Part shown: piece after piece, positions 19,715-41,645 of the stretch
Layout of the letters: the number at the start of each line of letters is the position of its first letter
Numbering within the stretch: the first letter of the stretch is position 1
Notes under the pieces: model-generated
What the model was told of the DNA's origin: nothing
What the model saw: the letters and a program-made list of their open reading frames with translations, nothing else
Database searches by the model: none
Program-made: the position numbers and the translations under genes
NCBI GenBank assembly: GCA_033762295.1
Contig: JANRLW010000009.1
Coordinates: 1-64,000 of the forward strand
Length of the DNA: 64,000 nucleotides
DNA from: Capsulimonadales bacterium
GTDB lineage: Bacteria; Armatimonadota; Armatimonadia; Armatimonadales; Armatimonadaceae
Direction of reading: 5' to 3'

Positions 19715-20371
19715 GTGTCCAAGTGGAACAGAGAGACGATTGCGGCGGAGATTCTTCGTCGCCATGAGACAGGACAGGACCTGTCGTACTCCGGAATGAC
19801 CCGTGAGAATCTGCCGCTGTTGCGTGCCGCTACCCGTTATCTCGGGTCCTGGCAGGCGGCGGTGGAGTTCGCGGGACTCAACTATGATGATATTCGGCGG
19901 TATCGCTCGTGGACGAACGAGCGGATCGTCGAACGCATTCGCGAACTGTACGCCGAAGGGCAGGACCTTTCCTGGCGTCATATTTCGCTCACCCTGGATC
20001 CGTCGCTCGCCGCCGCCGCCACCAAGAAATCACATTTCGGTTCGTGGCGTGCCGCGCTCGATGCCGCCGGTCTGGATTACGATGCGATCCGCCGCTACCA
20101 TGACTGGAGCGAGGATGTCGTTCTCCGCAAGGTGCGCGAACTCTATGCCGAAGGAAAGCCGCTCAACGCCAAGACGATGGAGCGCGAGAACATTACCCTG
20201 ATCACGGCGGCGCGTCGGCGCTTCCCGTCCTGGGATAAGACTCTCGCCGCCGCCGGTCTCGACTACCGGGGGATCGTGCTCCGTGCGCCGTTCCGACGTC
20301 GCCGCAACCCGCAGCGAACGCTGGAATACCGCAACGGAAACCGTAACCCGGCCGTCACCGCCGCCGCCTGA
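19715..20371 (+). CDS. Protein with three ~63-aa helical repeats (homing-endonuclease-associated-repeat-like), putative nucleic-acid binding
   Basis: AGAGGAG RBS, GTG start; three copies of W...I...I..L..EG.DL....L..AA....GSW..A...AGL.Y; Arg-rich tail. Confidence 0.8.
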   Translation: MSKWNRETIAAEILRRHETGQDLSYSGMTRENLPLLRAATRYLGSWQAAVEFAGLNYDDIRRYRSWTNERIVERIRELYAEGQDLSWRHISLTLDPSLAAAATKKSHFGSWRAALDAAGLDYDAIRRYHDWSEDVVLRKVRELYAEGKPLNAKTMERENITLITAARRRFPSWDKTLAAAGLDYRGIVLRAPFRRRRNPQRTLEYRNGNRNPAVTAAA

Positions 20372-22616: not shown

Positions 22617-23201
22617 TCAGGCCAGCCAGCGATTCCTCTGTTCGTCGGTCGATTCCGGGTCATCCCTCAGAGCGTCGGCGAACGTTTCCGGGTCGCTGAC
22701 GATCGGTTTCTGATCCGCGCGAAAATACTGGTTCGCCAGAGTCGGAGGCTGTCGCAGATAGGCCGAGATCTCCTCCGCCTGTCGTCCGATCGTCTCGGCA
22801 AGAGCCTTCAAAAACTTTTCCGGAATCGACTCCGGAGCGATCAGCCGCCGGTGCAGTTTGACGAACAGCGCGTACGGGATATCCAGAGCGGCGGCCACCG
22901 ATGCCGCGTCCAGGCCCCGCCCGGCTGCCGCCGCCATCAATCCGTTCACTCCGATCGCACCGGCTGTCGTCTTGCGTCGGGCTCGCACGACCTCCAGGCC
23001 GATCTCCCGCACGCGGGTGACCGCCACCGCATCCGGGGAGGTGTCCGCCCGGTCGGACCAGCGATCGGCGGCGAACCGTGCCAGATCGCGGGCCTGCGCC
23101 GGATACCGCCGCATCCACTCCGTCAGGTCCGGCCTCTCCGCCTGCGCGAACCGGACCAGCACCTCGTCCTCATCAAAAGGCAACTCGTTGACCGTACTCA
23201 T
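22617..23201 (-). CDS. Sigma-factor partner protein with central XRE-like HTH (putative anti-sigma/repressor)
   Basis: Starts 22 bp after the sigma gene. N-terminal helical domain (DLTEWMRRYP), central GLDAASVAAALDIP...KLHRR...FLKALAETIG resembling a Cro/C1 HTH, then YFRADQKP. Confidence 0.6.
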   Translation of the reverse strand: MSTVNELPFDEDEVLVRFAQAERPDLTEWMRRYPAQARDLARFAADRWSDRADTSPDAVAVTRVREIGLEVVRARRKTTAGAIGVNGLMAAAAGRGLDAASVAAALDIPYALFVKLHRRLIAPESIPEKFLKALAETIGRQAEEISAYLRQPPTLANQYFRADQKPIVSDPETFADALRDDPESTDEQRNRWLA

Positions 23202-23223: not shown

Positions 23224-24075
23224 CTAGGCCGTCAGCGCGCCGCGCTCCCAGGCCATCAATTTATCCTTGGCGCGGCGCAGGTAGTTGCGTACCGAACGCC
23301 CCGTGACTCCCAGCGCCCGTGCCACCGACGGGCGATTCGGGTCCTCGCTCTCCTCCGGCAACCCTTCCACGTAAATCAGGTACAGAGCGGTCCGCTCATT
23401 GTGATTCAACAGGCGCAACGCCTCCTCGTACTCGGCCAGCGCCTGCGGGGTCGCCCCCGTATCGGCGATCCGGCCGAAAAGCCGGTCGGAATCCCGCTCC
23501 TCCTCACCGTCCTCCGCCTGATCGCCGGGATTCATTTCCGTATCCGCCACCGCCTGACGCTTCTCGATCAGATTCCAGAGACGTCGATCCAGGCAAACCC
23601 AGAACCGCACTTCCCAGAACTCCGCCGACGGCGTTCGATCGAACAGCGCATCGCAGACCGCCGCGAAAAGGTCGCGTACACAATCATCGGCATCCTCGGA
23701 GGTCAACCGCCAGCGGGCCAGCTTTCGCTGAATATGCGCCGCCGTTCGCTCCACCAGCACCTCGATGATCTGCCAGGCCGTGTTTTCGTCCCCGTGCGCC
23801 GCAAATTCGCGTGCGAAATAGACGAGTGTCTCTTCCCGTAGTCGCGCGGAATCCGTCCATACCTGCCCCTTCATCAGCAGACGCTCGCGTCGCTGCCGGG
23901 CGGGCAGGCGGGAGATCTCCCGTACCTGAGCCTCGACCTCCCGTTCGCGCGTATAAACCTGTCCGTTGTCCCGTCGGGTTCGTGTGAGCGGTCGCACCGG
24001 CCAGGGGCCTCCCTCATCCGAATCTCTTTTTGCTCCGCTCTCGTCGGGAGAAGGGAACGCTTCGTTGTCTGTCAT
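23224..24075 (-). CDS. ECF-like sigma-70 family factor with N-terminal extension
   Basis: Region-2-like EDADDCVRDLF; region 4 LRLLNHNERTALYLIYVEG...VARALGVTGRSVRNYLRRAKDKL. Start placed at ATG 24075, downstream of TATAAT. Confidence 0.82.
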   Translation of the reverse strand: MTDNEAFPSPDESGAKRDSDEGGPWPVRPLTRTRRDNGQVYTREREVEAQVREISRLPARQRRERLLMKGQVWTDSARLREETLVYFAREFAAHGDENTAWQIIEVLVERTAAHIQRKLARWRLTSEDADDCVRDLFAAVCDALFDRTPSAEFWEVRFWVCLDRRLWNLIEKRQAVADTEMNPGDQAEDGEEERDSDRLFGRIADTGATPQALAEYEEALRLLNHNERTALYLIYVEGLPEESEDPNRPSVARALGVTGRSVRNYLRRAKDKLMAWERGALTA

Positions 24076-24278
24076 GGGCGGTACTGTCACGGTTTCCGGA
24101 AACCCGGAAACCGCCCTCGGAAAATTTACGACGCGCCCATTATAGCCCATAAAGCGGCGGCAAGGACAACGCACCCTGGCGGGCCGTTGCCTCGCTCCAT
24201 GATTGAAGCAAACACGGCGCAGAAGTGTCGGTATACTGTGTAGGACGTACTCGGTCCTTATCTGGCAAGGAGCCTCTC

Positions 24279-25700
24279 TTGAATCGGACAATTGCTGCAC
24301 ATTCGGTTCGCCGCCCTCTGTCGCGGCGCGATTTTCTCAGTGTCGCCACAATCGGCCTCGGCGGACTGCTTTCGGGTTGCGGAGGCGGCGGCGGTTCCGT
24401 GGTCCGGTCCACCCCGATCACCGGTGGTCCCGGTCGCGGCACAGGTGAGATCCCGCCGCAAAGCGGCTGGTCCGTCGTCAATACGGCCTACAAACAACTC
24501 ACCAAAAAGTGGACCTTCCTGGTCTACATGAATGCGGCGAACGACCTCGAAGAGTATTCCATCCTCAACATGAATCAGATGGAGGCGATCGGGTCCGGCG
24601 ATAACCTCAACCTCATCGTCCAGTACAAACGCTTTCCGAACCGATACGACAGTTCCAACGGCGACTGGCCGGGAACACGCCGTTACTATGTCGTCCGCGA
24701 TACCGATCGCGCTGCCGTGAACTCCTATCTCCTGTCCGAAAATCAAACGCTCGACATGGGCGACTGGCAGAGCCTGCAGCGATTCGTCCAGTGGGGGGTC
24801 GCTACCTACCCCGCCGAACGCTACTGCCTGGTTCTCTGGAACCACGGAGCGGGCTGGCGTTCGGCCCGAAACGGCGCGGGACCGATCACGCGCGGCGTCT
24901 CCTACGATGACATTACCGGAAATCACATAGATACCATCGAGTTCCCGGCCGCGATCGACATCGGCGGCGGACGCAAGTGGGATGTTCTGGCCTTCGACTC
25001 CTCGCTCATGCAGATGCTCGAGGTGGCCTACGAAATACGCGACAAGGCGACCTATATCGTCGGTTCGGAGGAGTCCCCGCCCGGTCCCGGCTACCCCTAT
25101 GATCGGTTCCTCGGCAACCTGGCCAACGATATCAACCGATCTCCGCGCGATTTCGCCATTGATATCGCACAGCAAACCATCGAGTCCTACACGCTGAACA
25201 GCAACATCACCCACTCGGTTCTGGATGTGTCCAAAGTCGCGGGGATCGTCCCGGCGGTCGACGAACTGGGTCGGCTGCTCTTCGAAAAGAAGGGAACGTA
25301 CGCGCAGCGTATCCGGGACGCCCGGGCAAAAGCGGAGAATTACGATTATCTCTATTACCGGGACATCATCGACTTCACCAACCAACTGACCGCGCCGATG
25401 ACGCCACAAGACCGACTGTCAAAAGAAGAATTTCCACTTACGACACCGCCTATCGCCGATGCTGCCATCGTGAACGCGGCGGCGCTCCTTCGTCAGACCG
25501 TTCAGGAGGCCGTGATCAAAAACGTCCGCGGCAATCAACACCCCCGATCCAACGGTCTCTCCATCTACCTGCCGACGCCGGGCGAGTACGATGCGATCGA
25601 TGTCTCCCAGGCCAACGGCTTCGGTCAGCGTTACCGCGCCCTCGCCTTCACCAAAGCCGCCCCCAGCTGGCATAACTTCATCGAGAACGGGCCGATCTAG
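24279..25700 (+). CDS. Clostripain (peptidase C11)-family Tat lipoprotein; catalytic Cys replaced by Ser
   Basis: SRRDFL + LSGC, WTFLVYMNAANDLE, LWNHGAGW, FDSSLM (canonical FDACLM), GSEE, NGLSIY; AAGGAG RBS before TTG. Confidence 0.85.
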   Translation: MNRTIAAHSVRRPLSRRDFLSVATIGLGGLLSGCGGGGGSVVRSTPITGGPGRGTGEIPPQSGWSVVNTAYKQLTKKWTFLVYMNAANDLEEYSILNMNQMEAIGSGDNLNLIVQYKRFPNRYDSSNGDWPGTRRYYVVRDTDRAAVNSYLLSENQTLDMGDWQSLQRFVQWGVATYPAERYCLVLWNHGAGWRSARNGAGPITRGVSYDDITGNHIDTIEFPAAIDIGGGRKWDVLAFDSSLMQMLEVAYEIRDKATYIVGSEESPPGPGYPYDRFLGNLANDINRSPRDFAIDIAQQTIESYTLNSNITHSVLDVSKVAGIVPAVDELGRLLFEKKGTYAQRIRDARAKAENYDYLYYRDIIDFTNQLTAPMTPQDRLSKEEFPLTTPPIADAAIVNAAALLRQTVQEAVIKNVRGNQHPRSNGLSIYLPTPGEYDAIDVSQANGFGQRYRALAFTKAAPSWHNFIENGPI

Positions 25701-32739: not shown

Positions 32740-33651
32740 TTGGAACTGCGAATCGAGAACCTGACCAAAACCTATCCCAACGGCGTTCGCGCGCTCAATG
32801 GAATCAACCTGATCATCCCGCGCGGTCTGTTCGGTCTGCTTGGCCCGAACGGAGCGGGGAAATCCTCGCTGATGCGAACGATCGCAACCCTTCAGGAGCC
32901 GGATACCGGCGGCATTTTCTTCAACGAAATCGACGTTCTTCGGGAAAAGGAGGCGTTGCGGGCGCGGCTCGGCTATCTGCCGCAGGAGTTCGGCTTCTAT
33001 CCGACCCTCTCCGCCGAAGCGACCCTGGACCACTTCGCCGCCCTGAAAGGCATGAACAACGCGCGCGAACGGCGCGAACGGGTGCAGGCGATGTTGCAAC
33101 AGGTCAACCTTTATGATGCCCGTAAGAAGAACGTCGGCGGCTACTCCGGGGGAATGCGTCAACGTCTCGGAATCGCCGTCGCCCTGATCGGCAACCCGGA
33201 ACTGATCATCGTCGACGAACCTACCGCCGGCCTCGACCCGACCGAACGCCACCGGTTCCTGAATCTGCTGTCCGAAATCGGTGAAAACGTCGTCGTCATC
33301 CTCTCGACGCACATCGTGGAGGATGTCCGTGAATTGTGCGAGCGGATGGCGATCATCGCCAGCGGTCAGGTGGTGGCCGAGGGCAACCCCGAAACCGTGA
33401 TCGAAGCGGTGCGCGGGCGTCTCTGGAAACGAACCTTCGACAAACGCGCCCTCGCCGATGCCCAGGCAAGATACCGGGTCGTCTCCACCCGACTCGTCGC
33501 CGGAAAACCCGTTCTGGCGATCTACAGCGAGCAATCGCCGGGCGACGGTTTCGAGCCGGTCGCCGCCGACCTGGAGGATGCTTACTTTTTCCATACCGCC
33601 CGGAACCTGGGTGGCGAACCGTCCGCAATCCCCGCAGGAGGTCCGTCGTGA
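32740..33651 (+). CDS. ABC transporter ATP-binding protein
   Basis: GPNGAGKS, YSGGMRQR, VDEPTAGLD. Confidence 0.95.
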   Translation: MELRIENLTKTYPNGVRALNGINLIIPRGLFGLLGPNGAGKSSLMRTIATLQEPDTGGIFFNEIDVLREKEALRARLGYLPQEFGFYPTLSAEATLDHFAALKGMNNARERRERVQAMLQQVNLYDARKKNVGGYSGGMRQRLGIAVALIGNPELIIVDEPTAGLDPTERHRFLNLLSEIGENVVVILSTHIVEDVRELCERMAIIASGQVVAEGNPETVIEAVRGRLWKRTFDKRALADAQARYRVVSTRLVAGKPVLAIYSEQSPGDGFEPVAADLEDAYFFHTARNLGGEPSAIPAGGPS

Positions 33652-36600
33652 AAGACGTTTTTCTCTTCGAACTCCGTTTCCGCACACGACAGATCTCGAC
33701 CTACCTTTTTTTCGGGATCTTCTTCCTCCTCGCCCTCCTGTTCATATCGACCGATATCGTGCAGCTCGGCGGCGGGGACGGCCGGGTCAAAGGAAACGCT
33801 CCCTTCGTGATCTCCGTGGCCGGAACCATCCTGATGGTCCTTGGCGGAACCATCTGCTCCGCTCTGCTCGGAACCGCCGTCTACCGCGATTTCGAAGCGA
33901 ACGCGCACGAACTGTTCTTCACCACCCGGCTTTCGAAGCGCGACTACCTGTTCGGGCGTTTCCTGGGCGCCTTCGTCGTGACCGTCCTGGTCTTTCTGTC
34001 GATTCCGCTCGGGTTCATCCTGGGGACCGTCGCGCCCTGGGCCGACAAATCCGACTTCGGACCCTTTCGCGCCGACGCCTACCTGTTCTTCCTCGGCGTC
34101 TATCTGCTGCCCAACTTGTTGCTGGTCGGCTCCTTCTGTTTTGTTTTCGGCGCGTTGACGCGCAGTCTCCTCGCCATTTACGTTCAGGGCATCCTGCTCT
34201 TCGTCGGCTGGGCCATGTCCCTGAGCCTCCTGAGCAACCTGGAAAGCCGGGAACTGGCCGCTTTCTTCGATCCTTTCGGCCTGAGCGCGACCTCCCTGCT
34301 GACCCGATACTGGACACTGGCGGAGAAAAACACCTCGCTTCTCACCCTCTCCGGTCCGCTGCTGGTCAATCGCGCCTTCTGGCTGGCCATTGCGGCGGTC
34401 GTTTTCGCGATCGGTTACCGTCTGTTCGCTTTTTCACGACATCCCCTGACCCTGGCGCGCCGCCGCAAGACAGCCATCGATAACGCCACGTTAACGGAGT
34501 CGGTTTTACCGTCCCAACTGCCGCCGGCGGCCACGGAACCCGTCTCGCCCCGGACCGTCTACCTCCGGTTGACCGGATTTTACTATCGTGAAATCCTGCG
34601 TGGCGTTCCCTTTCTCGCCATTACCTTCGCCGGTATGCTGCTGCTTTTCGTCAACGCTTCCCAGGCCGACCGCATTTTCGATACGCCGATCTATCCCGTG
34701 ACCCGCGTCATGATGGACAGCGTCGCCAACGGCTTTTCGCTGTTCTTCGTCATTCTGATCACCTTCTACACCGGGGAACTGGTCTGGCGGGAACGCGTGC
34801 TCCGTCTGGACCAGATTACCGACGCTCTGCCGACGTCGACCGCGGCCGGAATGCTCGCCAAAGTGTCGGCGATCGTCGCCATGCTGATGACGCTGAACGT
34901 CGGTCTGATCGCCGCCGGGATCGTGACCCAGGCCGCGAAGGGCTATTTCCACTTCGAACTGCCGCTGTACGCCACCTACCTGTTCGGCATCCTCCTTCCC
35001 GGCTGGATCGCCATGGTCTTTCTCGCCTTTTTCCTGCATTCCGTTCTCAACAACAAATTCCTGGGCCATACCGCCCTGATTCTGATCTCCCTCTCCGCGT
35101 CCGTTCTGCCCCTGCTCAAACTGGAACGCTACCTCTACCGGTTCGGCTCCGGACCGACCCCGGTGTACTCCGATATGAACGGCTTCGGACCGTTCCTGGC
35201 ACCGGTGTTCTGGTTTACCCTGTACTGGCTGGCGGTTTCCGTGTTGCTGCTCCTGGCCGCGCTTCGCCTCTGGGTCCGGGGCAAGGAGGAACGCCTGTTC
35301 TTCCGCTGGCAAAACGGGCGCATCGGTCGGGCCGGAAACGTTGTCGGCGTAACCGCCGCAGCGACCGTCGTCGGAAGCGCCGCCTTTATCACCTACAACA
35401 CCGACGTTCTCCACGAATACGTCCCGAAACAGGAGGGGCTTCGCCGCCAGGAAACCTATGAACGCTCCTACAAGGCCGCCTGGGAAAAGAAACCGATGCC
35501 GCACATCACGGCTGTCCGACTCGACGTCGACCTTCAGCCGGAACGACTCCGGTACGCCGTTCGGGGAACGTACCGCCTGAGAAATAAATCCGGGCGTCCG
35601 ATCCGCGAAGTCGCCCTGCAGACGGACCAGACCCTTACCGTGAAGGAACTGCGGTTCGCCGTTCCGGTCACCCCCGATATCGTCGATAACGCCACGGGCT
35701 TCCGAACCTTCCGCCTGGAACGTCCGCTGTCTCCCGGCGAGGAAACCACGCTCGATTTTTCGCTCGCCTATGACAAAACCGGCTTCCCGAACGACGGCAT
35801 TCAGACCGCCATCGCCGAAAACGGAACGTTCGTGACCATGCCGGTCCCTGCGATCGGGTACCAGCCCGGCGGCGAAATCACCGACGAACGGGAACGGGAA
35901 AAGCGAAAGTTGCCGAAGCGTCCCCGTATGCCGGCCCTGACCGATACCGCCGCCCGCAACCGTACCTATCTGGGCAGCGACGCCGACTGGATCGACTTCG
36001 AGGCCACCGTCCGGACCTCCCCCGACCAGACCGCCATCGCCCCCGGCTACCTGCAAAAGGAATGGACGGAAAACGGACGACGCTGTTTCCGCTACAAAAT
36101 GGATGCCCCCATCCGCAACTTCTACTCCTTCCTCTCGGCCAGGTACGCGGTCAAGCGCGACACCTGGACCGGACAAGACGGCAAAAAGGTTGCCCTCGAG
36201 ATCTGGTACCACCCCGCCCATGCCTATAATCTCGACCGGATGATGGCGGGAATGAAAGATGCGCTCACCTATTGCTCCGAGAACTTCGGCCCGTATCAGT
36301 TCCGACAACTTCGCATCCTGGAGTTCCCGGCATACGCTTCCTTCGCCCAGTCCTTCCCGAATACCGTCCCTTACTCCGAGGCCATCGGGTTCATCGCCCG
36401 CGTTCGAGAGGAGGAGGAGGACATCGACTACCCGTACTACGTCACGGCGCATGAAACCGCCCACCAGTGGTGGGCGCACCAGGTGCTGGGAGCGGACATG
36501 GAAGGGGCGACCCTGCTCTCCGAATCGCTGGCCGAGTACTCCGCACTGAAGATCCTGGAGAAAAAGTACGGCCCCGAACGGATTCGCCGGTTCCTGAGAC

Positions 36601-37250
36601 ACGATCTCGACCGTTACCTGCGCGGGCGCGGCGGCGAGCGGGAGGAGGAGAATCCCCTGGTCAAAGTGCAGAACCAGCAGTACATTCACTACCCGAAGGG
36701 CGCCCTCGCCTTCTACGCGCTGGCGGATCGGATCGCCGAAAAACGTCTGAACGCCGTCCTGGCGCGGTTCGTTCGGGACAAAGGGTTTCAGGAGCCTCCG
36801 TACACGACCTCCCTCGAACTGCTGGAATATCTCAAAACGGCGACGCCCGCCGGGGATCGTACCTTCCTCGGTGACCTGTTCGAGCGGATTACCATGTATG
36901 ACTGCCGGGCGACGGAGGCGTCCGCGAAACGGTTGCCTGACGGAAAATGGCGGGTGACGGTGACCGTCTCGGCAAGCAAGCGGTACGCCGACGGTTCGGG
37001 ACGAGAGACCGTCGCCCCCCTCGACGACCTCTTCGACATCGGTGTTTTCGCGGCCGCGCAGGGAAGGCAACGAGACAAGGACGCGGTCGGCAAGCCGTTG
37101 ATTCTGGAACGTCACCGGCTGACAACGGAACGGCGGACATTCACCTTCGAAACGGAGACCGAACCCGCGAAGGCCGGTATCGATCCTTACAACAAAATGA
37201 TCGACCGCATCCCTTCGGACAATGTCATCAAGGTGACGACCGCGCCCTGA
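33648..37250 (+). CDS. ABC-2 permease fused to an M1-family aminopeptidase
   Basis: Two multi-TM permease halves, then FAQSF, HETAHQWW...SESLAEY (HExxH-X18-E); GTG start overlaps the ATPase stop. Confidence 0.9.
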   Translation: MKDVFLFELRFRTRQISTYLFFGIFFLLALLFISTDIVQLGGGDGRVKGNAPFVISVAGTILMVLGGTICSALLGTAVYRDFEANAHELFFTTRLSKRDYLFGRFLGAFVVTVLVFLSIPLGFILGTVAPWADKSDFGPFRADAYLFFLGVYLLPNLLLVGSFCFVFGALTRSLLAIYVQGILLFVGWAMSLSLLSNLESRELAAFFDPFGLSATSLLTRYWTLAEKNTSLLTLSGPLLVNRAFWLAIAAVVFAIGYRLFAFSRHPLTLARRRKTAIDNATLTESVLPSQLPPAATEPVSPRTVYLRLTGFYYREILRGVPFLAITFAGMLLLFVNASQADRIFDTPIYPVTRVMMDSVANGFSLFFVILITFYTGELVWRERVLRLDQITDALPTSTAAGMLAKVSAIVAMLMTLNVGLIAAGIVTQAAKGYFHFELPLYATYLFGILLPGWIAMVFLAFFLHSVLNNKFLGHTALILISLSASVLPLLKLERYLYRFGSGPTPVYSDMNGFGPFLAPVFWFTLYWLAVSVLLLLAALRLWVRGKEERLFFRWQNGRIGRAGNVVGVTAAATVVGSAAFITYNTDVLHEYVPKQEGLRRQETYERSYKAAWEKKPMPHITAVRLDVDLQPERLRYAVRGTYRLRNKSGRPIREVALQTDQTLTVKELRFAVPVTPDIVDNATGFRTFRLERPLSPGEETTLDFSLAYDKTGFPNDGIQTAIAENGTFVTMPVPAIGYQPGGEITDEREREKRKLPKRPRMPALTDTAARNRTYLGSDADWIDFEATVRTSPDQTAIAPGYLQKEWTENGRRCFRYKMDAPIRNFYSFLSARYAVKRDTWTGQDGKKVALEIWYHPAHAYNLDRMMAGMKDALTYCSENFGPYQFRQLRILEFPAYASFAQSFPNTVPYSEAIGFIARVREEEEDIDYPYYVTAHETAHQWWAHQVLGADMEGATLLSESLAEYSALKILEKKYGPERIRRFLRHDLDRYLRGRGGEREEENPLVKVQNQQYIHYPKGALAFYALADRIAEKRLNAVLARFVRDKGFQEPPYTTSLELLEYLKTATPAGDRTFLGDLFERITMYDCRATEASAKRLPDGKWRVTVTVSASKRYADGSGRETVAPLDDLFDIGVFAAAQGRQRDKDAVGKPLILERHRLTTERRTFTFETETEPAKAGIDPYNKMIDRIPSDNVIKVTTAP

Positions 37251-38354: not shown

Positions 38355-41300
38355 CTATTCCGGGCAGATGAAATAGTACGGGCAGGTCGGACAATCGGCC
38401 GTATCGGCGGGCGTCGGCGGAAACACCTTCAGGCGGATGCCGCGTAAAGCGCGGTCATACTGCTCGAGGTGACGGAGGCGGGTTTTCGGGCGATCGGGGA
38501 CCGCCAGTGTCTCACCGGACTGCAAAAACCGCAGGCGAAGGTCCGGCTTACCGCCCGGTCGCGCTTTGAGCGCGGCCTCGTACAGCAGCGAGTAGCGAGG
38601 GTCCCGGAGAATATCGCTGTTTTCGGGATCGGTCGGCGGTCGCCGGAACGTGTGGCATTCCATCGTCGCCCCGTCGGACGACACGAAATCCGGCCGGACC
38701 TCGATCGCTCCGTTTTCCAGTTCCAGCGTCAGCGATGCCGGTAAATCCTTCCGCCGGAACGGCGCGACGCCGCTCGCGGCTGCGATATTTCGCTTTACCC
38801 GCTGTACGATCTCTCCCGCCGCCTGCCGGTACAGTTCCGCGTGCGGGTGCGTTTCGTCCAGTCCGTGCTCCACCCAGGCCGCCTCCAGAGCCACCGCCGG
38901 GTCCGGGCTTTCCAGCGCTTCCTCGAGCGTTCGCTTGAACGCATCGTAGGCGGTTCTTTCGCCGGTCGGGACGTTCGCCACCTCCTGATAGAAGTAACGG
39001 CGCGGGCAGCGCAGATACAACTCCGCCTCGGATGCCCGGATCGGTCCGGTCGGCGCGTCATCGGCATGGAGCGTTGACTCGAAATCGACGGTTTCGCCGA
39101 CCGGTTCCGCCGAAGCTTGCGCATAGTGCGCGGAGACCGACCAGACCTCGTTCCGAATTCCCGGTATCCCGTTCAGCGACTTCAGAAGCGGTGACGGCCA
39201 CTCCGGACGGCTGCCGTATTTCAACGCTCGTGACAGAACGATATGATCCCGCGCACGTGTCAGAGCGACGAAAAACAGGCGCGATTCCTCCTCCAGCGAG
39301 CTTGCGCCCGCTTTTTCATCGCCCGGCACCGGCGGCAACAGCGACGGCCCCGGACGGGAGGGAAACTTGTTCTGCGAAAGGTTGGGCACATAGACGATCG
39401 GGAACTCCAGTCCCTTCGCGCCATGCACGGTCAGGAAACGAACGACATCGGCGCCTTCGTCGGTTTCCGGGTCGGCGAATGTCGTCCCCAGTCGCGCCAT
39501 CCGCCGCAGATGCCGTAAAAAGGCGCGTCGTGGCTCATCGTCCTCCTCGAGCAACGCCACCGATCGATCCCGGAACGCTCGCGCTAGCGCAAGGAGGCGT
39601 GCCGCACCCGCCGTGTCCTCCAGCGTTCGAATCCAGCCCGGTCGCCCCCAGAAGAGTTCCAGATAAAAATCGAGCGCATCGCTGCGATACGGCAATCCCT
39701 CCGGAAGCTGCGGGTGGCGTCGCCGGGCCGGTCCCGCCGGTTCGGCCGCACGGGAGAGCAGCGCGACCAGATTTCGGACATCCCGACGCGCCAGAAACCC
39801 ACCCTCCTCCATGCCGCCGGCCGTCGGTATTCCGCGCGCGGTCAGCGCCGCCCGCAACTGACGCGCCTGGTTGCGCGTACGACAGAGCACCACCTGATCG
39901 CGGAACGCATACCCTTCCTGTTCGACGAAGTATCGCATCGTGTTGGCGATCCCGTCCGCCTGCGCCCGGTCATCGTCCGCAATCGCCAGCGTGACCGAGG
40001 CCGCCGGTTCCTCCTTACGCGATGCCTTCCAGGTCGCCGCCCCTTCCCCGCTGACCACACCGAACAGTGTCACCAGTTCCGCGCGCGAACGGTAGTTCAT
40101 CGCAAGATCGGTCCGCTCTCCGTTCGGGAAATCGTTCCGAAACTGAGCGACATTGGCGGGGGAGGCCCCACGGAACTGGTAGATGCTCTGCCGCACATCG
40201 CCGACGCACCAAAGACCGTCGCCGTCGCCGGCCAGCAGTTGAACCAGCCGCGCCCCGGCACGGTTGACATCCTGATACTCATCCACGAGAATATGATGCC
40301 ACTGAGCGCGTTCCGCCGTCCGCACCTCCTCGTTCTCCTCGAGCAGGCGCAGGGTCCGGCAGATCAGATCGCTGTAGTCCATCGCCCCCTTGTCCCGAAG
40401 AATCCGCTCGTAGAACGCATACACCCGTGCGACGTCCCGCAACCGATCATCCCCCGCCGCCTCCGCCCGTTCGGCGAACTCCTGGGGAGACATCATCTCC
40501 TCCTTGACACGTGCGATCATCCGCAGAATATCGGGGAGCGGGAACGCCAGGTCATGAAGGTACTGCAGGGCCGTCAGCCCCAGGTGGGCGGCACGACGCT
40601 CCAGAAGGGCGCAGGCATCCGCCATTTCCAGCAGAACGGGGGTCGCCGGAAGCCCGATCACCGTGCCATGCCGACGCAGCATCTCCAATCCGTAGGCGTG
40701 GAACGTACTGATGGAGGCGCGACGCGCGACCTCCGGTGCGACCAGAGCGATCCGCTCCCGCATCTCCTCCGCCGCCTTACGGGAAAAGGTCAACGCCAGC
40801 AGGTTCTCCGGGGGAACGCCGCACTCCTCGGTCAGAAAAAGCACGCGGGCGGTCAGCGTTCGGGTCTTCCCCGTACCCGGCCCCGCTCCGACCAGCAGAG
40901 GTCCCTTCTCCGCACGCGCGGCCTTCTCCTGACTGGGATCGAGGGTCGTCGAGAGAGGAGCCGGTGGTACGACAGCGGACTCGTCGGTGTCCGGCGCGAC
41001 CGCCGGACTCTCCGTCAGACTTTCCGTCAACTGGGCAAAAACGAGCGCCGACGGCAGCCCCAGACGGGCAGCCATTCGGTGAGCATCCGTCCCCGCATCG
41101 AACAGCCGACGCGCCGACGATGCGGGTAAAAGGAACTCGCGGGCAAACACATTCGCCTCGGTTTCACGACGTTGTCGCGGACCGTACCCGATGTTAAGCG
41201 TCGATTCCGGTTCGGCGAAGTCCTCCTCACAGCAATGGCAGAGGATGCCTTTCTCATGGAGGTAGAAATGGGCGAGTTCATGGGCGAGATAGACCCGTCG

Positions 41301-41546
41301 CTCCGCCGGCAGGGCGTCGGCACGAACCCAGATCGCCCGGGCCTCCGGGTCCAGAACGGCATGCGCCCCGGAAAGCAGGGCATCGCTCGGGCGACGCGGG
41401 TAACAGCGCAGGCCCGCCACCTTCAGGGCGGTATTGAGAAGCTGCTCCGCCGGCGCATCAGCCTCCTCTCCCCTCGTTCCCAGGAGAAGGGCTCGTCGTT
41501 CCCGCGCCGCCGCACGCGCCGCCTGCCATGTGGTCGCCGCTCCCAA
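38355..41546 (-). CDS. ImmA/IrrE metallopeptidase - UvrD/PcrA SF1 helicase - AddB/Cas4-like Fe-S domain fusion (~1063 aa)
   Basis: AHELAH + ETEANVFAREFLLP; helicase motifs GPGTGKT, TFSRKAA, DEYQD, GDVRQSIY, NYRS, TVHGAKGLEF, FVALTRA; RCPRRYFY...CPTCPYYFICP. TTG start inferred 6 nt after TATAAT. Confidence 0.9.
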   Translation of the reverse strand: MGAATTWQAARAAARERRALLLGTRGEEADAPAEQLLNTALKVAGLRCYPRRPSDALLSGAHAVLDPEARAIWVRADALPAERRVYLAHELAHFYLHEKGILCHCCEEDFAEPESTLNIGYGPRQRRETEANVFAREFLLPASSARRLFDAGTDAHRMAARLGLPSALVFAQLTESLTESPAVAPDTDESAVVPPAPLSTTLDPSQEKAARAEKGPLLVGAGPGTGKTRTLTARVLFLTEECGVPPENLLALTFSRKAAEEMRERIALVAPEVARRASISTFHAYGLEMLRRHGTVIGLPATPVLLEMADACALLERRAAHLGLTALQYLHDLAFPLPDILRMIARVKEEMMSPQEFAERAEAAGDDRLRDVARVYAFYERILRDKGAMDYSDLICRTLRLLEENEEVRTAERAQWHHILVDEYQDVNRAGARLVQLLAGDGDGLWCVGDVRQSIYQFRGASPANVAQFRNDFPNGERTDLAMNYRSRAELVTLFGVVSGEGAATWKASRKEEPAASVTLAIADDDRAQADGIANTMRYFVEQEGYAFRDQVVLCRTRNQARQLRAALTARGIPTAGGMEEGGFLARRDVRNLVALLSRAAEPAGPARRRHPQLPEGLPYRSDALDFYLELFWGRPGWIRTLEDTAGAARLLALARAFRDRSVALLEEDDEPRRAFLRHLRRMARLGTTFADPETDEGADVVRFLTVHGAKGLEFPIVYVPNLSQNKFPSRPGPSLLPPVPGDEKAGASSLEEESRLFFVALTRARDHIVLSRALKYGSRPEWPSPLLKSLNGIPGIRNEVWSVSAHYAQASAEPVGETVDFESTLHADDAPTGPIRASEAELYLRCPRRYFYQEVANVPTGERTAYDAFKRTLEEALESPDPAVALEAAWVEHGLDETHPHAELYRQAAGEIVQRVKRNIAAASGVAPFRRKDLPASLTLELENGAIEVRPDFVSSDGATMECHTFRRPPTDPENSDILRDPRYSLLYEAALKARPGGKPDLRLRFLQSGETLAVPDRPKTRLRHLEQYDRALRGIRLKVFPPTPADTADCPTCPYYFICPE

Positions 41547-41645
41547 TAGCCCATTATATCGCTCCGCCGCGCGGAAAACCGCTGTTTGACTCCGTCCCGT
41601 TGGCGGCGATCGAGGACCGCCTGTACAATAGCCGGGTTTTCCGCC

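Follow-up and report, generated by a model that had tools for sequence, protein, structure and literature searches.

What might a bacterial cell do with a single protein that joins a zinc peptidase, a DNA helicase motor and a nuclease-like fold? The question is raised by a 64,000-nt stretch of a Capsulimonadales bacterium genome (assembly GCA_033762295.1, contig JANRLW010000009.1), hereafter the window, whose positions serve as coordinates throughout. On its minus strand, at 38355..41546, a gene beginning with TTG encodes a 1063-amino-acid (aa) fusion of an M78 peptidase, a UvrD helicase and an Fe-S pseudo-nuclease, an assignment that draws on the open reading frame (ORF), its translation, Pfam and an AlphaFold model. 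A first-pass annotation had described this three-part fusion in one ORF and had proposed that it serves in signalling and not as a repair helicase. Its account of the fusion stands, and the genomic context supports its proposal; it missed two partner genes in the same window, c1, with an XRE-type helix-turn-helix (HTH) fold, and c2, a probable sigma-70-family factor. We think it fairly probable that the fusion is the sensor-protease of a three-protein transcription switch formed with c1 and c2.

Domains and conservation of the fusion protein

All the motifs quoted in the first pass are present in the window's protein: HELAH at residue 89, ETEANVF at 128, GAGPGTGKT at 220, DEYQD at 422, RCPRRY at 846, VRPDF at 950, MECHTFRRPP at 962 and CPTCPYYFIC at 1052. 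Pfam, profile comparison with the PDB and structure prediction agree that residues 1-195 (40962..41546, minus strand) are an IrrE/CapP-type zinc peptidase with an HTH-like linker, whose active site comprises H89, E90, H93 and E128. Peptidase_M78 (PF06114) matched residues 65-166 at 41.7 bits against a cut-off of 22 (E 1.2e-10), and a profile of the domain matched CapP (7t5t, 2.2e-6) and IrrE (3dte, 2e-4) with the HExxH motif and the downstream Glu aligned. In CapP, the zinc ligands are H96, H100 and E129 (10.1101/2022.04.27.489752). An AlphaFold model of residues 1-195 had a predicted local distance difference test score (pLDDT) of 86.6 and a predicted template-modelling score (pTM) of 0.83. 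Its best fold matches in the PDB were IrrE (3dti, E 2.7e-5), the complex of PprI with single-stranded DNA (ssDNA; 8sln) and CapP (7t5t); these span 177-186 columns, so both the peptidase and the HTH-like linker are present. The N-terminal HExxH peptidase of M78 fold that had been proposed is thus borne out by an intact HExxH...E and by the model's top matches. No match to the GAF domain, which is C-terminal in IrrE and CapP, was found in the window's protein, and the helicase starts at residue 202.

Residues 202-773 (39228..40943, minus strand) form a superfamily 1A (SF1A) motor of the UvrD/PcrA/Rep type, with Walker A K227, DEYQD at 422-426, motif III at 449-461 and motif VI at 760-766. Pfam PF00580 (UvrD-helicase) matched residues 202-474 over its full length (profile positions 1-271 of 271; E 2.5e-68) and UvrD_C matched at E 6.3e-28; with Walker A and B and motifs III, V and VI all in place, the SF1A motifs are intact, as had been claimed. 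Searching PDB sequences with the motor, phmmer found UvrD1 (7e-65) and PcrA (1e-62). The full-length AlphaFold model (mean pLDDT 86.6, pTM 0.88) matched UvrD1, PcrA, UvrD and Rep over the motor, and AddA, AdnA/AdnB and RecB over the motor and nuclease-like domain together. The fusion resembles UvrD, PcrA and Rep in having all SF1A motifs, with 25-29% identity over roughly 650-685 columns to the UvrD1, PcrA and UvrD structures. Unlike them, it carries extra N- and C-terminal domains, and it is not an orthologue: its NCBIfam scores fall below the equivalog cut-offs for pcrA (297.3 vs. 911.2), rep (261.6 vs. 951) and uvrD (228.8 vs. 1144), and far below those for AddA and RecB too. Two further UvrD-type genes are carried by G000, the genome that contains the window (94.5% complete).

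The C-terminal domain, residues 838-1062 (38361..39035, minus strand), has an AdnA/AddB-like PD-(D/E)xK fold with four cysteines (C847, C1052, C1055 and C1061) and the motif II aspartate D953, and is without (D/E)xK. PDDEXK_1 matched residues 838-1062 at 37.6 bits against a cut-off of 22 (E 3e-9), completing the set of four Pfam families (Peptidase_M78, UvrD-helicase, UvrD_C and PDDEXK_1) that had been expected to match. A profile of the domain matched the AdnA nuclease domain in the PDB at 1.9e-6, with the D-L-K-T-G-K of AdnA opposite the family consensus r-v-r-T-G-k. No alignment gives the window's domain a (D/E)xK; the candidates are E-C-H or, at the position of AdnA's D-L-K-T, F-R-R-P-P-T. 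Among 260 aligned C-terminal domains, [DE]xK-T occurs in 12, of which 11 come from three unrelated tandem-nuclease proteins that lack a helicase and one (P0110) from a fusion. The motif II position (D953, in VRPD) is Asp in 249 of 283 aligned domains, and the cysteines are kept in 268-276 of 283. A four-cysteine staple and a retained PD with (D/E)xK missing, first pointed out in the window's protein, therefore hold across the family, and these alignments predict a catalytically dead nuclease fold, a family-wide pseudo-nuclease. We also observed three metagenomic proteins (P0125, P0173 and P0196; 1047-1297 aa) with multiple tandem Fe-S PD-(D/E)xK domains and neither helicase nor peptidase; three to four domains in each keep D-Y-K-T/S.

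The same architecture recurs widely. A word-indexed search for close homologues gave 120 listed matches at 35-62% identity, with HExxH near the N-terminus in 116 and the C-terminal CxxCx5C in 118. H89, H93, E128, K227, C1052, C1055 and C1061 are kept in all 115 aligned full-length members, and E90 and C847 in 114; the HExxH motif, whose conservation in orthologues mattered to the first-pass annotation, is thus retained at each of its three residues in 114-115 of 115. In 40 sampled members, Pfam found M78 and UvrD domains in every case and PDDEXK_1 in 36. A profile of the C-terminal domain, searched against 1.84 billion representatives, returned 350 clusters at E <= 1e-30 and 1692 at E <= 1e-10, and 154 full-length proteins with this domain include 149 with HExxH and 148 with Walker A. 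Walker A and B, motif III, HExxH and the Glu are kept in all 16 Armatimonadota copies that were aligned. The fusion is a conserved architecture, neither a product of chance nor an assembly artefact. One locus, L096 (G066:C8:62000-69000), has an interrupted fusion gene, with a longest frame of 680 aa and its N- and C-terminal matches in different frames; it could be a pseudogene or an assembly error.

The reading frame of the window's fusion gene is open upstream to 42722. This extension lies opposite a plus-strand ABC ATPase gene and the homologues share the N-terminus that begins at 41546, which makes 41546 the likely start. A TATAAT -10-like box (41544..41560, minus strand) ends 6 nt before the TTG, with no Shine-Dalgarno sequence at the usual distance, and the two together suggest a transcript that is leaderless or nearly so. 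The -10 hexamer is the sole basis for a promoter here, as a sigma-70 consensus scan listed none on the minus strand at the gene's start.

Partner genes, their linkage and a bipartite promoter motif

The first partner, c2 (23224..24075, minus strand), encodes a probable ECF (extracytoplasmic function)-like sigma-70-family factor of 283 aa, extended by ~100 aa at its N-terminus. Its identity to the c2 of an Armatimonas cassette is 58%. It scored 24.4 against Sigma70_r4_2 (cut-off 25.7) and 29.2 bits against TIGR02937 (sigma70-ECF; positions 13-161 of 165, E 6e-7), below the cut-off of 42.9. A profile of c2 matched the structures of SigL, RpoE and FliA at 4e-5 to 7e-4, and matched ordinary ECF sigma factors over positions ~60-260. 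The extension is family-specific, with conserved R19 and R86 and a PL..R..G..Y.R...VEA block, and is absent from ordinary ECF sigma factors.

The second partner, c1 (22617..23201, minus strand), encodes 194 aa and shares 41% identity with its Armatimonas counterpart. The protein has a helical region at its N-terminus, adopts an XRE-type HTH fold over residues ~75-160 and carries the conserved C-terminal motif Y159-F160-R161-A-D-Q-K-P. A structure search of the Atlas placed it with an HTH_31 cluster at a template-modelling score of 0.52, and a weak XRE match was found to 3kxa (E 0.066). Across the family this motif reads P-x-L-A-x3-[YF]-[KR]-[AS]-x3-P; of 34 sequences, 27 have its aromatic-basic pair and 33 its Pro. 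CapP cleaves its partner CapH between F82 and R83 (10.1101/2022.04.27.489752), and by resemblance to that site the aromatic-basic pair of c1 is a candidate cleavage site. No c1 fused to a larger protein was found among the 675-2000-aa proteins searched. An uncultured bacterium (L007:6844-13167) encodes a 385-aa c1 with an N-terminal zf-HC2 anti-sigma motif and no adjacent separate sigma gene; its fusion gene is followed by a PglX-like methyltransferase gene rather than by Bil or Bub genes.

In the window, c1 and c2 lie 14 kb from the fusion gene on the same strand, with the fusion gene first. The adjacency of the three is seen in relatives. A scan of species-representative genomes, from which the best 80 loci were taken, gave 21 loci with full-length matches, spanning Chloroflexota, Acidobacteriota, Verrucomicrobiota, Armatimonas and many Proteobacteria. 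ORF clustering of these revealed a cassette with c2 (~260-280 aa) first, c1 (~190 aa) second and the fusion gene third. A c1-type gene is directly upstream of the fusion gene in 20 of the 21 loci. A sigma-like c2 is upstream of c1 in 20 as well, 19 of them recognized by clustering and one, L046, by Pfam; c2 has a Sigma70_r4 region. Downstream, Bub-type genes (Multi_ubiq, Prok-E2_E, ThiF/JAB, DUF6527) follow in 11 loci, as found by Pfam in L012, L014 and L015 and by clustering in the rest. Bil genes follow in six, with BilA, BilC and BilD found by PADLOC in L006, L009 and L011 and the others by clustering, and four loci have neither. The Bil- and Bub-linked cassettes belong to Proteobacteria, Verrucomicrobiota and Chloroflexota, and each is directly upstream of its cargo and co-directional with it.

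Within the Armatimonadota, we surveyed 151 sampled genomes from 39 families. The C-terminal domain occurs in 21 of them, as a single copy, and in four families only (f1, 5/6; f2, 6/7; f8, 6/8; f27, 3/4). The 20 carriers other than G000 include 19 with c1, and by our reading of gene coordinates the trio is contiguous in 12, interrupted by a 1-2 kb gap in two and placed on different contigs in two. In three further carriers, distances of 15.6 kb, 830 kb and 3.5 Mb separate the genes, and the split fusion copies keep all motifs. These splits look independent, since the flanks of the split fusion genes do not cluster with each other. We found no cargo for the cassette in the window. DUF6527 and Multi_ubiq were not found in G000, the latter being a weak blank because the Multi_ubiq control matched nothing in control genomes.

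A quick maximum-likelihood tree (39 rows; Shimodaira-Hasegawa-like approximate likelihood-ratio test (SH-aLRT) support) used the UvrD paralogues of G000 as a long-branched outgroup. Armatimonadota copies grouped by family (f1, 99; f8, 99; f2, 100), with the window's copy sister to that of G079 (96). The cargo-bearing copies formed one clade (97) in which taxonomy is scrambled, with Pseudomonas beside Aeromonas, Sphingomonas beside Mesorhizobium, and Verrucomicrobiota nested inside. This pattern fits vertical descent in the Armatimonadota and horizontal spread of the cargo-linked form. Lineages without cargo branch first, the root being unsure.

A candidate c2-dependent promoter, TTTCCGG-N17-CAGTAC, stands at 24081..24110 (minus strand), ending 5 nt before the c2 ATG and overlapping a 14-bp palindrome, GGTTTCCGGAAACC, that is not conserved in relatives. 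TTTCCGG-N17-[CG]AGT[AT] occurs at the start of c2 in the window and in G079, G040, G145 and G075. In 10 of the 21 cross-phylum loci, TT[TA]CCGG followed after N13-18 by GATT[AGT] or [CG]AGT[AT] lies within 150 nt past the fusion gene's stop, before the cargo, and near-variants of this motif were recognized by eye in five more. As a background, the bipartite motif had 22 matches in 798,434 nt, and 12 of the 22 were these same sites. The -35 element is thus common to several phyla, as a conserved sigma-4 domain would lead one to expect.

Related elements were observed at two other places. In three f8 loci (L099, L101 and L107), a second TTTCCGG-N17-18-xAGTx, oppositely oriented and some 100-130 nt upstream of the c2 promoter, faces a small divergent gene, whose product has a similar N-terminus in L097, L099 and L101; the gene may be an extra sigma target. 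In G000, TTCCGG-N17-GAGTAT is found upstream of radA (C73:38300-38372), between a Fur-like gene and radA. The element is similar in G012, has one mismatch in G079 and is absent in G026, G040 and G139, and it may be an ordinary promoter.

A proposed transcription switch and its alternatives

We infer DNA activation of the peptidase, c1 as its substrate and release of the sigma factor, in the following order. The UvrD-type motor and the dead Fe-S nuclease fold would bind or track abnormal DNA, whether ends, forks or ssDNA, arising from damage or from an invading element. This engagement would activate the N-terminal IrrE/CapP-type zinc peptidase, which would then cleave c1, probably at the conserved F160|R161. 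Cleavage would lift the hold of c1 on the sigma factor or on the promoter, and the freed sigma factor would transcribe from promoters of the TTTCCGG-N17-xAGTA type. In other phyla, such a promoter would drive the Bil or Bub ubiquitin-like defence operon directly after the fusion gene. In this Armatimonadaceae lineage, the cassette appears to be vertically inherited and has no such cargo, and as it is split here, the three proteins would have to act in trans. The only target detected in this genome is the promoter of the sigma gene itself.

The signalling reading is the best-supported one because the linkage to the sigma factor and c1 is conserved, a promoter motif precedes the cargo, and the peptidase and ATPase sites are kept while the nuclease site is lost; the IrrE/PprI/CapP fold points the same way, as do the two further UvrD-type genes of the genome. 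Several results weigh against it. The motif is upstream of c2 in only two of 19 loci outside the Armatimonadota, its layout resembles that of an ordinary -35/-10 promoter, and the promoter of the window's fusion gene does not match it. A genome-wide scan of G000 gave seven matches at N17 and 16, 8, 6 and 11 at other spacings; as this is no enrichment, no output regulon is identified in this organism. The evidence for linkage derives from related, non-independent genomes, and one carrier, G121 (95% complete), has no detectable c1. For c1 itself, neither Pfam nor NCBIfam gave a match, its HTH being too diverged for Pfam, and no sequence similarity to CapH was detectable. It may be an anti-sigma factor, a repressor or both, an ambiguity that also counts on the negative side.

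A more specific form of the proposed switch, which we advance tentatively, is that cleavage of an XRE-fold inhibitor is licensed by ATP-driven movement of the motor along foreign or broken DNA, in place of the passive binding of ssDNA in CapP or PprI, and so frees a private sigma factor. The cargo-less form in Armatimonadaceae would then be a chromosomal response to stress or invader DNA, as the lack of an attached defence operon, the vertical inheritance and the working in trans from split loci suggest, and the mobile Bil and Bub cassettes would perhaps derive from such a circuit. If the switch operates as proposed, DNA translocation would be coupled directly to proteolytic signalling, and the activation of many Bil and Bub ubiquitin-like operons would be accounted for. 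The split, cargo-less copy in the window would mean that the three proteins can act in trans, which would allow easy reconstitution from separate plasmids.

As an alternative to a regulatory function, the fusion may itself be a defence or repair effector, with the motor tracking DNA and the peptidase degrading DNA-bound, cross-linked or phage proteins, and with the sigma factor and c1 only regulating its expression. The conservation of all ATPase motifs implies real translocation, the Armatimonadota cassettes have no attached cargo, a sigma-type promoter drives the cassette itself, and PADLOC found a GajB-like core at 269 bits (residues 201-584). That match covers the generic UvrD core only, and Pfam showed no TOPRIM or GajA-like gene of a Gabija system among the fusion's neighbours, GajA not having been searched genome-wide. 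The peptidase is specifically of the IrrE/CapP regulatory type with its HTH-like linker, a separate Bil or Bub operon follows in 17 of the 21 loci from other phyla, and the window's fusion gene is not behind a sigma-type promoter; we therefore regard an effector role as unlikely.

The peptidase may instead trim the ~100-aa N-terminal extension of c2, in the manner of a pro-sigma factor, leaving c1 as an ordinary DNA-binding co-regulator. An extension that is family-specific and carries conserved residues would suit this idea, as would the XRE fold of c1, typical of DNA binders, and the palindrome overlapping the window's c2 promoter. The palindrome is not conserved in relatives, however, and the aromatic-basic motif of c1 resembles the CapH cleavage site. 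ImmA and IrrE cleave XRE-type partners. So does CapP (10.1101/2022.04.27.489752), and trimming of c2 appears somewhat less probable still than an effector role.

Least credible, and in our view improbable, is an ordinary AdnAB/AddAB/RecB-like repair helicase with a decayed nuclease and a passenger peptidase: the full-length fold search does match AddA, AdnA/AdnB and RecB over 977-1207 columns, in a housekeeping neighbourhood of ABC transporters and a DUF58 gene, but the NCBIfam scores do not come near any equivalog cut-off, no gene for a partner subunit lies next to the fusion gene, the fusion co-occurs tightly with c1 and c2, two canonical UvrD-type genes exist elsewhere in the genome, and the peptidase site is invariant across phyla while the nuclease site is lost, the reverse of passenger decay.

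Known switches and neighbouring genes

The cassette shares features with several characterized systems. Like AdnAB, AddAB and RecBCD, the fusion has an SF1A motor followed by a RecB-family fold, with a four-cysteine Fe-S motif as in AdnA and AddB. Unlike them, it is a single polypeptide with no partner subunit and an N-terminal peptidase, and D-x-K has become R-x-R in most members. The dead domain is reminiscent of RecC, in which an inactive nuclease-like domain guides a DNA strand. Sigma switches opened by proteolysis are also known, such as RseA-sigmaE and the Csx30-CASP-sigma system cut by Craspase. The proposed switch would resemble these in its private ECF-like sigma factor, small inhibitor and signal-responsive protease, and one c1 carries zf-HC2; it differs in the fusion of its protease to a DNA motor and in the XRE fold of the putative inhibitor.

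The M78 peptidases ImmA, IrrE/PprI and CapP, whose substrates are XRE-type repressors, are the second large class of bacterial DNA-damage switch beside LexA/RecA, and how these regulators sense DNA is only now being worked out. Among the closest known systems is the CapH and CapP pair from the Corbett laboratory, described as 'controllers of adjacent pathways'; IrrE(PprI)/DdrO and ImmA/ImmR are related pairs. CapP consists of M78, HTH and GAF domains, is activated by ssDNA and cleaves its partner, and Lau et al. reported 24 CBASS systems (anti-phage signalling based on cyclic oligonucleotides) with capH, capP and a sigma-70-family factor (10.1101/2022.04.27.489752). PprI, too, is activated by ssDNA and cleaves its partner (PMC10904395). 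CapH and CapP accompany 25 of 162 Bil operons, in divergent orientation in all but one (PMC10557695), and 168 of 544 Bub operons, and CapW is present in 43 of 544 (Bub preprint).

In relatives, the cassette is like CapH and CapP in pairing an M78 peptidase and HTH-like linker with an XRE-type partner upstream of immune operons, which in their case are CBASS, Bil and Bub; in the window, the partner lies 14 kb away and no cargo was found. In the fusion, about 870 aa of complete UvrD-type motor and dead Fe-S nuclease domain take the place of the GAF domain found in CapP and IrrE. Unlike with CapH and CapP, a dedicated sigma factor is nearly always present, and cassette and cargo point in one direction, whereas capH and capP are divergent in all but one case and their gene order differs too (PMC10557695). 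We found no M78-helicase fusion or cassette of this kind in the papers searched; the 'CapP' entries of the Bub table are IMG numbers and could include helicase fusions. The word 'helicase' is absent from the main texts on CapH/CapP (10.1101/2022.04.27.489752), Bil (PMC10557695), Bub and CapK/CapS (PMC13373217). The cassette is distinct from known switches of M78 peptidase and XRE partner by its fused DNA motor and private sigma factor, and is here split, without cargo and vertically inherited.

We considered and set aside the cassette as a replacement for LexA. TIGR00498 was found in 135 of the 151 genomes surveyed in the phylum, among them G000 and members of all four families with the cassette. 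In a single case (G087:C5:27744-29810), lexA and the sigma gene of the cassette are divergent and some 770 bp apart.

Two neighbouring genes were also rejected as members of the system. At 24225-25700 on the plus strand, divergent from c2, is a Peptidase_C11 (clostripain-family) gene whose product has a signal and a lipobox-like N-terminus; it also occurs in G079, G026, G040 and G139 (4/5 f1). With no sigma-type motif on its own side and the look of a secreted lipoprotein, it was dismissed as cargo, being linked by synteny only. The immediate neighbours of the fusion gene are housekeeping-like by Pfam: downstream lies a DUF58 gene, and upstream an ABC transporter in divergent orientation. The DUF58 gene was discarded as a partner, as the genes downstream of the fusion in f1 relatives do not cluster with it.

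Elsewhere in the window, the plus strand at 32740-37250 carries an ABC ATPase gene and, after it, a 1304-aa ORF in which an ABC-2 permease region is joined to a Peptidase_M1 domain, an unusual transporter-peptidase fusion; the start of this ORF is uncertain, and it overlaps the ATPase ORF. At 19715-20371 (plus strand), a 218-aa ORF contains two homing-endonuclease-associated repeats (HNH_repeat, E 4e-17).

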